From NCBI GenBank assembly GCA_944392125.1, contig CALXVP010000001.1, positions 289,020 to 353,019 on the forward strand: a stretch of DNA of 64,000 nt. Reading direction: 5' to 3'. Each line of letters starts with the position of its first letter. Position 1 is the first letter of the stretch. The notes beneath the pieces are model-generated. The model worked only from the letters and a program-made list of their open reading frames with translations, was not told where the DNA came from and searched no databases. Below are positions 24,827-30,790 of this stretch, one piece after another. The stretch is from an uncultured Alphaproteobacteria bacterium (GTDB lineage: Bacteria; Pseudomonadota; Alphaproteobacteria; CAAHEQ01; UBA3637). The position numbers and the translations under genes are program-made.

Positions 24827-25066
24827 ATGCGGAAAGATGATTTAATTTCTGTTGTCATACCCGTTTATCAGGATAAAAAAACAATTGAGAAATCAATTTG
24901 TAATACCTCTTGCAAAAATTTAGAGATTATTATTGTATATAGAGCTGATAAGGATACTACACATGAAAAAAATAGTGCGTCAATCGGCACTGTTACGGGA
25001 ACTTTATTTCAAACAATACATAAAAATATGAAGCATATAGTTAAATTAAAAAACGTATTTTATTGA
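24827..25066 (+). pseudogene. Family-2 glycosyltransferase N-terminal remnant
   Basis: ISVVIPVYQ motif. The DxD region is degenerate. The ORF terminates after 79 aa. Confidence 0.4.
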
Positions 25067-25102
25067 AAAAAATCATGTAATAAAATAAAAAAGGATATTA
25101 TT

Positions 25103-26140
25103 ATGGTTAAAAAAGCACTTATTACAGGTATTACCGGCATGGTGGGATCACATTTATGTGATTACTTACTTGAAAATACCGAATGGGAAATACACGGCGT
25201 ATGCAGATGGCGCAGTCCTCTTGATAACGTGTCTCATCTGTTGGAAAGAGCAAATAAGAAAGATAGGCTTTTGTTTGAATATGCTGATTTAAACGATCAA
25301 ACTTCATTAATTACCGTCGTTCAAAAAATAAAACCTGATTACATTTTCCACTTAGCCGCACAAAGTTATCCCCAAACAAGCTTTACTGCTCCGATTGATA
25401 CCCTTAATACGAATATTTTAGGAACCTGTCGACTATTAGAGAGTATCCGTTTTGTAATGAATAATGATAAAAATTACAAACCTATTATTCATGTCTGTGC
25501 CTCATCCGAAGTATTTGGGAAAATTCCTCGCGAGAAAAAGCCGGATACCGGTATTCATGAGGAATGCCCCTTTCATCCGGCTTCTCCTTATGCCATTTCA
25601 AAAGTAGGAACCGATCTTATCGGTCGCTACTATGCCGAGGCCTTCGGAATGACGGTAATGACAACAAGGATGTTTACTCATACAGGGCCTCGTAGGGGTG
25701 ATGTCTTTCATGAATCAACATTTGCAAAACAAATTGCCATGATTGAAGCCGGGCTAATTTCTCCGATTGTTAAAGTCGGCAATTTAAAATCGTTAAGAAC
25801 ATACGCAGATGTGCGCGATGCCGTTCGCGCATATTATATGCTGGTTACCGTAAATCCAATTCCCGGAGAATACTATAATATCGGCGGTTCATATACTTGT
25901 GAAGTTGGTGATACATTAAACACCCTTATTTCTTTCTCCACAATGAAAGACAAAATCAAAATAGAAATTGATCCGGAACGATTACGCCCGATTGATGCGG
26001 ATTTACAAATCCCGGATTGCCGGAAATTTAAACATCATACCGGCTGGGAACCACAGATACCCTATGAAAAGACCATGAAAGATTTATTGGATTATTGGAG
26101 AGATAGAATTTCTCGTGGCGAAAAATTTTTACAAAGATAA
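25103..26140 (+). CDS. GDP-sugar 4,6-dehydratase (Gmd/DmhA/WcbK-like)
   Basis: N-terminal match to E. coli Gmd (ALITGITGMVGSHL, HLAAQSYP, GTCRLLESIR) and an SDR catalytic YxxxK. Confidence 0.7.
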   Translation: MVKKALITGITGMVGSHLCDYLLENTEWEIHGVCRWRSPLDNVSHLLERANKKDRLLFEYADLNDQTSLITVVQKIKPDYIFHLAAQSYPQTSFTAPIDTLNTNILGTCRLLESIRFVMNNDKNYKPIIHVCASSEVFGKIPREKKPDTGIHEECPFHPASPYAISKVGTDLIGRYYAEAFGMTVMTTRMFTHTGPRRGDVFHESTFAKQIAMIEAGLISPIVKVGNLKSLRTYADVRDAVRAYYMLVTVNPIPGEYYNIGGSYTCEVGDTLNTLISFSTMKDKIKIEIDPERLRPIDADLQIPDCRKFKHHTGWEPQIPYEKTMKDLLDYWRDRISRGEKFLQR

Positions 26141-26160
26141 TAAGATACGGAGATTTCAAA

Positions 26161-26742
26161 ATGCTTAATGAAATTAAAAGTTCATGTGATCAAATCTCGC
26201 AAAATTTTCAAAATTTAAAAAACAGGGCGCCAATAATTGAAGAAATTGCTCATATATGGATTGAAGCGCTTTCAAATGGAAATAAGGTAATTTTTTGCGG
26301 AAACGGCGGTTCGGCTGCCGATTCTCAACACTTAGCCGCCGAACTAATGGGAAAATACAGATTAGATAGATCTCCTTTACCGGCCATCAGCCTGACTGTT
26401 GATACATCTGCTTTAACAGCTATCGGAAATGATTATGGATATAATAAGGTATTTTCACGGCAATTGCTTGGAATTGGGCATTCGGGTGATGTGTTGGTTG
26501 GTGTATCTACTTCCGGGAACTCTGAAAATGTTGTTGATGCATTTATTACTGCTCAAGAAAGAGGCATCAAAACCGTTGCTTTTACGGGTGAACACGGCGG
26601 GAAATTAAAAGAAATTGCCGATGTATGCTTAAATGTTCCTTCAACGATAACAAACAGTATTCAGGAAATGCATATTGCTTGCGGGCATTTAATTTGTGGC
26701 CTTGTCGAATCGTATTTGTTTAGCAATAAAAAAGGAGAATAG
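26161..26742 (+). CDS. gmhA: Sedoheptulose-7-phosphate isomerase
   Basis: SIS domain with GNGGSAADSQHLAAEL. Confidence 0.8.
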   Translation: MLNEIKSSCDQISQNFQNLKNRAPIIEEIAHIWIEALSNGNKVIFCGNGGSAADSQHLAAELMGKYRLDRSPLPAISLTVDTSALTAIGNDYGYNKVFSRQLLGIGHSGDVLVGVSTSGNSENVVDAFITAQERGIKTVAFTGEHGGKLKEIADVCLNVPSTITNSIQEMHIACGHLICGLVESYLFSNKKGE

Positions 26743-29066: not shown

Positions 29067-29347
29067 AGCTACGATCATCACCAACCGAGCTTTACAAAAC
29101 AACATTCAAAAATTTTCGCAATATATAATTTCACGAAAAATTTGAAATAAAGTGGAACTTATTAAAAGTAGCAATTAAAAGGCATGACAATAGGATAACT
29201 TTATGATAAACTAGGATAATAAGAGTTGCAGAGGGAAATATATCAAGTGTTATTAAATAAAAAAATATAAAAATACCAGCATAGGAATTTACCCAATATA
29301 GAGAATTTTAAACTGTAACAACCGATTAAAAAGAAAGGATTATCAAG

Positions 29348-30232
29348 GTGTATATTATCATTGGAGGCAGTGGATTTTTAGGACGCTATTGCATTAAAAA
29401 CATTATAGAAAACACAAATGAAAACATTATCGCCACACATTCGGAAAAAACCATCCCGGTATATGAAAATCCGAGAGTAGAATGGATATCATTAGATGTT
29501 TGCAATATAACTGCGCTGAAACAATTGGCCGATAAAGTGGATGATAATACAAAAATAATTTACCTAGCAGCCATGCATCATCCTGATCAAGTTCAAAAAT
29601 TTCCGGAACAGGCATGGGAAGTTAATATTATAGCTTTGGCAAATGCAGTTAATTTGTTTGGAAAAGCAAAATGTTTATACTATTCTTCAACTGACGCGAT
29701 TTATGGAGAAGGAAGTAAAAATAAAAAATTTGTTGAATCCGATCCGTATGCGCCTATCAATTTATATGGAAAACATAAGGCTCTTGCAGAACAAATCTGC
29801 CTTACAAAAGGATTTAACATTGTTCGTTTTCCGTTAATTTTCGGCCCATCTCTCATTGAAACTAAGCCTCATTTTTTTGATCATATAAAATCAAGTATGG
29901 AGGCGGGTAAAGAGGTAGAATTGTTTTCCGATTCATACCGCTCTATTTTATCGTTTAACCAATGCGCCTATTTTTTGGTTATGCTTATCGAAAAATTCGG
30001 CAGTTGCAACGAGAAGATTATCAATATTGCCGGAGATGATATCATGAGTAAATATGATGCTGCTGTTGCATTGGCGAATAAGTATCATCTTGATAAAAGT
30101 TTAATTAAACCGATATCAATGCAACAAAACACAACCATCTTTAAAATAAAGCGTGCTACAGACATAATCGTTGATAATTCTAAATTAAAAAGCTTATTGA
30201 ATATTAAAGAAATACACTGGGATATAGGATAG
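29348..30232 (+). CDS. NAD-dependent sugar reductase/epimerase (SDR; RmlD/DmhB-like)
   Basis: N-terminal GGSGFLGR and catalytic YGKHK. Confidence 0.55.
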   Translation: MYIIIGGSGFLGRYCIKNIIENTNENIIATHSEKTIPVYENPRVEWISLDVCNITALKQLADKVDDNTKIIYLAAMHHPDQVQKFPEQAWEVNIIALANAVNLFGKAKCLYYSSTDAIYGEGSKNKKFVESDPYAPINLYGKHKALAEQICLTKGFNIVRFPLIFGPSLIETKPHFFDHIKSSMEAGKEVELFSDSYRSILSFNQCAYFLVMLIEKFGSCNEKIINIAGDDIMSKYDAAVALANKYHLDKSLIKPISMQQNTTIFKIKRATDIIVDNSKLKSLLNIKEIHWDIG

Positions 30233-30412
30233 CTAAAAATAATGTAAGCTATAGTGTAAATATTTTTAAGTTGTTTAAACAGCATAATTTTACTCATTCT
30301 GATAAAAACCTTTAGTTTGAAATGATAATGATGATTTTAAATTGTATTTTTTTCTAATCTATACGATACTTAATTATGTTAAATCGCTAGAAAATATAAA
30401 GAGAGGAAAAAC

Positions 30413-30790
30413 ATGTTAATTGAATACATTAAACCAGATTTTGAATTTTCTGATGAAAGAGGCACGCTCAGACAACTGGTTCATACCGGCTGGAAGCAAG
30501 TGAATTATATCACTTCGGTTATCGGATCTTTTCGGGGGAATCATTATCATAAAAAAAATACTGAAGCGTTTTTTGTAATCAGTGGATCATTTCGGCTTAT
30601 TACTGAAAGTTTGGATGGAAAAATTCATGAAGAATATAATATGGAAGCAGGAGATTTTTTCATTATAAAACCTTATATAAATCACAGTTTTGATTATACA
30701 CAAAACACACAGCTTATCTCCTTTTATGATCAAGGAGTTGAAAATGCGGATGGAACAAAAGATATTTTTGTTTCCAACACAACCGACTAA
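30413..30790 (+). CDS. Cupin sugar 3,4-ketoisomerase-like (FdtA/WxcM C-terminal-like)
   Basis: RGNHYH His pair, as in FdtA-type isomerases. About 125 aa. Confidence 0.45.
   Translation: MLIEYIKPDFEFSDERGTLRQLVHTGWKQVNYITSVIGSFRGNHYHKKNTEAFFVISGSFRLITESLDGKIHEEYNMEAGDFFIIKPYINHSFDYTQNTQLISFYDQGVENADGTKDIFVSNTTD

Follow-up and report, generated by a model that had tools for sequence, protein, structure and literature searches.

A putative GDP-6-deoxy-heptose cassette without linked glycosyltransferases in an uncultured alphaproteobacterium

Isomers of 6-deoxy-heptose are already known from Campylobacter, Yersinia and Burkholderia (PMC10680097, PMC7949155, PMC4104973). In Campylobacter jejuni, a 4,6-dehydratase produces a 4-keto intermediate that is acted upon by a cupin and then by a reductase of the short-chain dehydrogenase/reductase (SDR) family; the epimerases are RmlC-like cupins of ~180 aa, the reductases resemble GDP-fucose synthase, and the genes reside in a Kps-type capsule locus together with glycosyltransferases (GTs). 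The pathways of Yersinia pseudotuberculosis and Burkholderia pseudomallei consist of a dehydratase and a reductase, without a cupin, and their compact units of about six genes, leading from sedoheptulose-7-phosphate to GDP-6-deoxy-heptose, lie within complete capsular polysaccharide or O-antigen loci. In Staphylococcus aureus, CapF (WbjC/WbcJ), an enzyme of the UDP-L-FucNAc pathway, joins an N-terminal SDR to a C-terminal cupin domain and carries out C3-epimerisation followed by C4-reduction of a 4-keto-6-deoxy sugar nucleotide (PMC3699295). Here we analyse a predicted GDP-6-deoxy-heptose locus that lacks linked GTs and lies immediately upstream of a giant two-partner secretion (TPS) adhesin, at positions 24827-30790 of a 64,000-nucleotide stretch of DNA (hereafter, the window) from an uncultured Alphaproteobacteria bacterium (GenBank assembly GCA_944392125.1, contig CALXVP010000001.1, positions 289,020 to 353,019). 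The reading we favour, with a probability of roughly 65%, is that this locus descends, with loss of its GTs, from a conserved surface-glycan cassette that has spread horizontally, that its remaining genes are under selection and that its product is used in trans.

The window locus shares with C. jejuni a closely related 4,6-dehydratase and the logic of dehydratase, cupin and SDR reductase, and with Y. pseudotuberculosis and B. pseudomallei a compact set of some six genes, including a kinase related to WcbL, that would lead from sedoheptulose-7-phosphate to a GDP-6-deoxy-heptose. It differs from the former in that HddC and GmhB are fused, in that the cupin is a 125-aa protein of CapF/FdtA type and the reductase is RmlD-like, and in that no GT is present; neither the cupin nor the SDR has a match to the C. 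jejuni enzymes at the sequence level, and the resemblance of the cupin to them is confined to the fold (TM ~0.65). From the latter it differs in possessing a cupin and in lying outside a complete polysaccharide locus. A parallel for the last two genes is CapF, which contains the best solved relative of the cupin family, with an aligned motif, and whose domain order is mirrored by the order of the SDR and cupin genes. In the window, however, these are two separate proteins with a presumed GDP-heptose substrate, in place of the UDP-HexNAc of CapF, and the RmlD-like SDR does not match the CapF/WbcJ SDR model.

All seven ORFs listed in the original prediction are present at the coordinates given there, head to tail on the forward strand. 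The first is a defunct GT2 gene, discussed below, and the operon formed by the other six encodes all four of the activities required for GDP-heptose synthesis. GmhA, a sedoheptulose-7-phosphate isomerase with a SIS_2 domain (26161-26742), matches the NCBIfam models PRK13936 (206 bits, E=4e-61) and TIGR00441 (203.7 bits against a cut-off of 209.45). The following gene (26749-27819) encodes a GHMP-family heptose-7-phosphate 1-kinase of the HddA/WcbL type, for which HddA is the top NCBIfam match (E=1e-43, 149.9 bits against an equivalog cut-off of 600) and which aligns with the solved heptose kinases 3k85, WcbL (4usk) and 4n3o (E=1e-40 to 1e-33). The third (27816-29066) is a fusion, bearing GGFGTRL and DRDGV motifs, of the heptose-1-phosphate guanylyltransferase HddC (residues 1-226; 200 bits against an NCBIfam cut-off of 300) and the heptose-1,7-bisphosphate 7-phosphatase GmhB (residues 232-398; TIGR00213, 163.6 bits, over its cut-off of 149.6). 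Ahead of these three genes, a 345-aa SDR (25103-26140) shows full-length similarity to 7US5, the GDP-D-glycero-D-manno-heptose 4,6-dehydratase of C. jejuni (residues 1-341, E=2.9e-112, 378 bits) and retains the catalytic motifs SSEVFGK and SPYAISK. Strong homology thus underlies the predicted activities up to and including the dehydratase, and the GDP-6-deoxy-heptose pathway originally proposed on the basis of these genes is well supported as a prediction.

The two remaining genes would tailor the dehydratase product. The 294-aa extended SDR (29348-30232, forward strand) starts with GTG downstream of an AAGGA ribosome-binding site and matches Pfam RmlD_sub_bind with 95.1 bits (cut-off 27); MAT2B and archaeal and bacterial RmlD are its best solved relatives in a PDB profile search. 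Its family retains invariant G6-x-x-G9-x-x-G12, S114/T115 and Y140-x3-K144 motifs, and its structure model has a pLDDT of 84. It was considered as RmlD itself, the dTDP-4-dehydrorhamnose reductase, and this was rejected on a TIGR01214 score of 75.5 bits against a cut-off of 224; it likewise has no match in sequence to the C. jejuni reductases that resemble GDP-fucose synthase. We predict from these similarities that it is an NAD(P)H-dependent ketoreductase of GDP-4-keto-6-deoxy-heptose. The small cupin (30413-30790, forward strand) scores 41.0 bits against Pfam Polysacc_synt_C (PF14667; cut-off 28.7) and 34.6 against Cupin_2, and was modelled with a pLDDT of 93. Its family profile finds the Cap5F cupin domain as top PDB match (E=2e-9), and its HxH...E...H residues (H44, H46, E51, H91), which together with R41 and G42 are invariant across the family, line up with the H, H, E, H of CapF. 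It had no match to Pfam dTDP_sugar_isom, and neither phmmer nor the profile search matched it to MlghB or Cj1430. In most loci the cupin gene directly follows the SDR gene, abutting or overlapping it. Because both the sequence profile and this gene order match CapF, the cupin is favoured as a C3-epimerase and the SDR as a C4-reductase; from fold, motifs and gene order, the cupin is in any case predicted to be either a C3-epimerase or a 3,4-ketoisomerase acting on a 4-keto sugar nucleotide.

In a scan with a single genome for each GTDB species, 41 loci were identified, the best SDR match being 73% identical to that of the window, and SDR homologues at 58-75% identity are plentiful in gut metagenomes. 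The 41 loci span Alphaproteobacteria, bins labelled Akkermansia or Opitutales, Succinivibrio, Elusimicrobia and Mailhella, as well as Phascolarctobacterium, Megamonas, Lachnospiraceae, Anaerosporobacter and Acidaminobacter, with gut and rumen as a common theme. Within 10 kb of the SDR gene, a cupin is found in 38 of 41 loci, a heptose-type dehydratase in 29 and GDP-heptose genes in 31-32, and at least one recognisable GT is present in 39. In two Hadza gut loci (L009 and L010) the order is a GT2 gene (297 aa), the dehydratase, gmhA, the kinase, hddC-gmhB, a 669-aa Glyco_trans_1_2 protein, a 369-aa RGP-like protein, the SDR and the cupin; a Candidatus Enterousia metagenome-assembled genome (L011) has the same order without the RGP-like gene. 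The closest relatives of the window locus (L012-L014), which are 92% identical to it in the dehydratase, 85% in the kinase, 75% in the SDR and 70% in the cupin, encode a 309-aa GT2 and, between hddC-gmhB and the SDR, a 1067-aa GT2-GT2-hexapeptide protein; in these loci an Acyl_transf_3 gene separates the SDR from the cupin and an MsbA-type ABC exporter gene immediately follows the cupin. Across relatives the leading GT2 measures 289-309 aa and the GTs that follow hddC-gmhB, ahead of the SDR, measure 665-1070 aa; one locus (L057) carries two large GTs, an RGP-like gene and four further GTs, seven GT-like genes in total. The window locus is AT-rich and belongs to a type that has spread horizontally, in agreement with its initial description as AT-rich and apparently acquired.

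The genes that accompany the cassette in these relatives bear on its role. The exporter of L012 (12348-14108) is of the MsbA lipid A type (TIGR02203, 511 bits), a hint that lipid A-core may be the site of glycan assembly, and in the monoderm Anaerosporobacter faecicola (L041) the cassette adjoins an ABC-2 exporter, a GT4 and a pyruvyl transferase. No Wzx or Wzy gene was present in the gene tables of the relatives. The GT-rich loci, together with msbA in L012 and the ABC-2 exporter in L041, thus point to surface polysaccharide or lipooligosaccharide (LOS) decoration, rather than protein glycosylation, as the role of the cassette in relatives. A flagellin beside the cassette of Firmicute relatives was also considered and rejected, as the motif scan was empty and Pfam annotation of L041 gave a polysaccharide locus of the ABC-2-exporter type. 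As a separate observation, 26 of the 41 loci encode large Glyco_trans_1_2 proteins, often in tandem (e.g. L009 6876-9998), with lengths of 665-850 aa that rise to ~1270 aa in two loci, and the 369-aa RGP-like protein lies directly before the SDR in 15. Neither the large Glyco_trans_1_2 GTs nor the RGP-like protein has a solved or NCBIfam-curated relative.

Comparison with L012 locates the GT genes that the window locus has lost. The 79-aa ORF at 24827-25066 (forward strand) matches only positions 1-44 of the 168 of the Pfam GT2 profile, at 18.2 bits against a cut-off of 23.3, and contains no complete GT-A domain. Its codons 1-51 (24827-24970) correspond by tblastn to residues 1-51 of the 309-aa GT2 of L012 (55% identity, E=1e-10). 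In blastn, DNA homology to L012 restarts at 25047, equivalent to L012 position 2771, and the L012 GT2 gene ends at 2828, so that the last 57 bp of the gene are retained at 25047-25102 and ~0.7 kb between the surviving ends is gone. Since homology extends to both ends of the GT2 gene only, what had been called a dead GT2 stub is indeed a nonfunctional remnant, but it is an internally deleted gene with both ends preserved rather than a mere stub. Homology to L012 breaks again at 28921 and returns at 29328, across the slot that holds GTs in relatives and that is here about 281 bp of AT-rich non-coding DNA (29067-29347) without homology to them. A third break, between 30222 and 30392, corresponds to the acyltransferase slot of L012 and now comprises the roughly 180 bp of unrelated, AT-rich non-coding sequence between the SDR and the cupin (30233-30412); homology finally ends at 30779.

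The distance between hddC-gmhB and the SDR reflects the same loss. Among loci where hddC-gmhB precedes the SDR, it is about 282 bp in the window and in three independent assemblies of the window species (L001, L002 and L015), as against 794-6815 bp in all others, where the slot of 0.8-6.8 kb codes for one to three GTs. Because the GT-less layout recurs in these independent assemblies, it is not an assembly artefact. The GTs, acyltransferase and MsbA-like exporter of relatives were sought by tblastn across the whole window, including the 282-, 181- and 318-bp gaps, and only the GT2 remnant was matched; apart from it, no GT domain was detected among the scanned ORFs of at least 110 aa in the 64 kb, and neither GTs nor genes for export or polymerisation (Wzx/Wzy, ABC-2, Kps) were found linked to the sugar genes in the window. 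The reported lack of a linked GT was therefore correct; it reflects deletion from a conserved cassette, which is accompanied by GTs in 39 of the 41 other species, rather than an original trait of the locus. One GT2 gene lies ~6.6 kb to the left of the window. Separately, a relative whose cupin is 79% identical to that of the window (L059) has a GT668-like gene before the SDR that is truncated to ~166 residues (L059 76-757), which shows independent or intermediate GT decay, so that loss in this cassette is not unique.

The six remaining ORFs are full length and their catalytic motifs are intact. To estimate selection on them, the window was compared with L015, a divergent conspecific strain that is also GT-less and shares the 282-bp gap (271 of 281 positions identical). 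Between the two strains, the six genes carry 47 synonymous and 20 non-synonymous differences, for a pN/pS of 0.11 (binomial P = 7e-18 against the neutral expectation), and intergenic sequence differs by 2-4%, near the dS of 0.044. A pN/pS this low between two GT-less strains indicates that purifying selection continued after the GTs were lost, and selection on the genes in turn suggests that the sugar nucleotide is probably still consumed.

Together, these results are best explained by the following course of events in the gut alphaproteobacterium that carries the window. An ancestral cassette ordered as GT2, dehydratase, gmhA, hddA, hddC-gmhB, one to three large GTs, SDR and cupin would have had its leading GT2 killed by internal deletion, the GT block between hddC-gmhB and the SDR removed, and the sequence past the cupin replaced by the TPS locus, leaving a single-strand, six-gene operon with sedoheptulose-7-phosphate as starting substrate. 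The DmhA/DdahA-type dehydratase would yield GDP-6-deoxy-4-keto-D-lyxo-heptose, the cupin would rearrange this 4-keto intermediate, most likely by C3 epimerisation in the manner of the CapF cupin domain, and the RmlD-like SDR would reduce the keto group. The predicted product is a GDP-6-deoxy-heptose with D-altro or D-ido configuration after C3 epimerisation, and manno or talo otherwise. An undescribed sugar, as initially suggested, is possible but not indicated, as the enzyme folds predict kinds of isomer that have already been described. The product is most likely consumed by a transferase encoded elsewhere in the genome, which would decorate lipopolysaccharide (LPS), LOS or another surface polysaccharide, and the combination of a missing GT and a neighbouring adhesin most plausibly arose through deletions and rearrangement, in a region that is decaying and rich in islands.

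Several observations weigh against this reading. No transferase able to use the product was identified in the window plus ~6.6 kb leftward. GmhA, HddA and HddC all fall under their NCBIfam equivalog cut-offs, although each model is the best match of its protein, and they are divergent members of these families with a predicted function. The top structural neighbours of the cupin in Foldseek are not CapF but the 3,4-ketoisomerases QdtA, FdtA, WlaRB and HCAN_0198 (E ~4e-8, TM 0.75-0.78), followed by the CapF cupin domain and RmlC-like 3- or 3,5-epimerases (TM 0.65-0.72), Cj1430 and MlghB included (TM 0.64-0.67). Because ketoisomerases outrank CapF in this comparison, more than one chemistry is possible for the last two steps. 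Moreover, distant SDR-cupin pairs (40-48% identity) lie beside non-heptose dehydratases in five loci (L039, L042, L044, L048 and L052). The pair is therefore not intrinsically heptose-specific; it is a tailoring unit for 4-keto-6-deoxy sugars in general, which the cassette has put to use on heptose. The estimate of selection derives from one divergent strain and 67 differences, and in Tajima relative-rate comparisons the window lineage shows 141 lineage-specific amino-acid changes against 84 in L012 with L009 as outgroup, and 129 against 72 with L011 (P ~1e-4). This amounts to ~1.7 times the changes of the GT-bearing sister, the excess lying mainly in the kinase, SDR and dehydratase, and it is compatible with relaxed or altered constraint after GT loss, or with a generally faster lineage. 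We read the combined evidence as a pathway that is probably still functional but less tightly constrained than in relatives.

The same observations could indicate a relic in decay, in which sugar-nucleotide genes without a consumer persist as the not-yet-degraded rest of a dying locus amid pseudogenes. The dead GT2 and missing GT block, the fragmented pntA gene and prophage remnant nearby, the excess of amino-acid change and the truncated GT668-like gene of L059, as an instance of recurrent GT decay, would all fit such a relic. We nevertheless consider it unlikely, given that six full-length ORFs with intact motifs have been held at a pN/pS of 0.11 while intergenic sequence diverged at about the synonymous rate. 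Far less probable still is the proposal that the cassette heptose serves to glycosylate TpsA or pilins through an unrecognised transferase, such as one of three ORFs without family assignment downstream of tpsA (49601-53687). The cassette does end 318 bp upstream of the tpsB start (31108) and on the same strand, with the gene for the 5232-aa TpsA next, and adhesins are glycosylated elsewhere, HMW1 by HMW1C and autotransporters through heptosylation by Aah/TibC. Known heptosyl adhesin systems, however, use ADP-heptose, not GDP-6-deoxy-heptose; the partners of the cassette elsewhere are polysaccharide GTs, msbA and ABC-2 exporters; and among the scanned ORFs of the window, including those around tpsBA, the GT2 remnant is the sole GT-family match, with none to HMW1C-like or GT9/BAHT-like families. 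Beside the cassette, a TpsB homologue is seen in the window, L001 and L002 alone; the 41 species loci (within 10 kb) and the extra relatives have none. As this neighbour is confined to the window species, TpsA or pilin glycosylation receives no comparative support, and the adjacency, to which the original prediction had attached significance, is best explained as an accident of genome rearrangement.

Within the pathway itself, the cupin could instead act like FdtA and QdtA, as a 3,4-ketoisomerase, with the SDR as a 3-ketoreductase, giving an isomer that has perhaps not yet been reported. Besides the Foldseek ranking, this is suggested by a Pfam FdtA (PF05523) score of 25.4 bits, barely over the cut-off of 23, and by an invariant HxH pair (H44, H46) as in FdtA, QdtA and WlaRB, to which the cupin is also similar in size. 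We regard it as possible but doubtful. The cupin profile lies nearer to the CapF cupin domain than to QdtA (E=8.5e-5), with other ketoisomerases at up to E=3e-3; the full HxH...E...H motif aligns with CapF; the SDR-then-cupin gene order is the CapF domain order; and an aminotransferase, the usual partner of known ketoisomerases, is absent from the window cassette and was not seen in the gene tables of relatives. The known substrates of FdtA, QdtA and WlaRB are dTDP-hexoses. In sequence, the protein initially described as FdtA-like is closer to the C-terminal cupin domain of CapF than to FdtA. A GDP-mannose, fucose or rhamnose pathway, by comparison, is extremely improbable. It is suggested by the Pfam names of the dehydratase (GDP_Man_Dehyd) and of the SDR (RmlD_sub_bind), but true GDP-mannose dehydratases score at most 152 bits against the window dehydratase, as opposed to the 378 bits of 7US5, and that dehydratase reaches 181.6 bits with the NCBIfam gmd model, whose cut-off is 415. 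The operon encodes GmhA, a heptose kinase, HddC and GmhB and contains no ManB/ManC or RmlA/RmlB genes, and rmlC is likewise absent from the locus. The sequence comparisons thus favour GDP-6-deoxy-heptose over a mannose, fucose or rhamnose product.

The idea that a sugar locus serves a giant adhesin thus gives way, on the reading of a GT-less derivative used in trans, to one of gene loss in a mobile surface-glycan cassette. Its conserved module, comprising the dehydratase, gmhA, hddA, hddC-gmhB, the RmlD-like SDR and the CapF-like cupin, occurs in many uncultured gut and rumen bacteria, and its last two enzymes belong to families other than those of the characterised heptose tailoring enzymes of Campylobacter, Yersinia and Burkholderia. 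With the chemistry of the substrate already established, the reusable lead is this widespread and uncharacterised SDR-cupin tailoring pair. A GT-less allele under purifying selection also offers a natural experiment in which sugar-nucleotide supply is unlinked from glycosyltransfer. As a long shot, the split CapF-like pair could constitute an unstudied 6-deoxy-heptose route, common among gut commensals from at least five phyla and here feeding an unrecognised trans-acting transferase, conceivably encoded by one of the unassigned ORFs near tpsA, which would make it the first case of GDP-6-deoxy-heptose-dependent protein glycosylation.

The cassette differs from its surroundings in base composition, with a GC content of 0.35 against 0.43-0.45 in the flanks. 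A promoter-like site on the forward strand upstream of the GT2 remnant (24766-24794; TTGACA-17-TATAGT, 11 of 12 consensus positions) is a candidate promoter for the operon; it is the top consensus match within 24300-31200, where the total number of sites does not exceed the shuffled expectation. Further upstream lie a bidirectional terminator-like hairpin (24409-24427) and a GC-rich non-coding stretch (24440-24560) with a T-arm-like hairpin on the minus strand (GCGGG-TTCAATC-CCCGC). A tRNA or tmRNA at this left border was sought and rejected, since ARAGORN predicted none in the window and Rfam gave no match at E<0.1; the region 24405-24560 may represent a piece of a tRNA or att site that the prophage described next left behind. 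Directly abutting the left side of the cassette is a prophage remnant of ~10 kb (14615-24398, minus strand), which contains a GpJ FNIII fragment, NlpC/P60, DUF1833, an S49 protease, a lambda-type portal and gpW, as well as a ParB-N6/N4 methylase, DUF6362 and DUF6291. Beyond it, the AlaDh_PNT transhydrogenase/alanine-dehydrogenase gene (pntA; 12446-13322, minus strand) is split into several short ORFs and is an apparent pseudogene.

The left end of the window is occupied by an AT-rich island (89-11875, GC 0.29-0.36) that extends leftward beyond it (L060 1694-8181). The island opens with a type III restriction-modification system (PADLOC REase_III, 280 bits), followed by genes for a NUDIX protein, an FAD oxidoreductase, an MPG DNA glycosylase, a guanylate-kinase-like protein and a DrmD-like SNF2 helicase (270 bits), and then by genes for a Ppx/GppA-like protein, an HhH-GPD glycosylase, a SAM methyltransferase, a UDG-superfamily protein and a nucleoside-deoxyribosyltransferase-like ORF. 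The block is found again on another contig (L061), where its left flank differs. With its three DNA glycosylases, it may be a system for defence or DNA modification.

On the opposite side, a low-molecular-weight phosphotyrosine phosphatase gene lies immediately 3' of tpsA and is followed by the three ORFs of 526, 267 and 574 aa mentioned above, none of which has a Pfam or NCBIfam match; the four genes together span 49097-53687. Farther to the right are genes for PFK, LptB, an LptC/LptA-like protein and KdsD. The presence of KdsD, LptB and LptC/LptA in the window identifies the host as an LPS-producing diderm. The LptC/LptA-like protein, encoded beside lptB and kdsD (59197-60906, minus strand), is 569 aa long, with an LptC-like N-terminal and an LptA/LptD_N-like C-terminal region, and is apparently a fused LptC-LptA.

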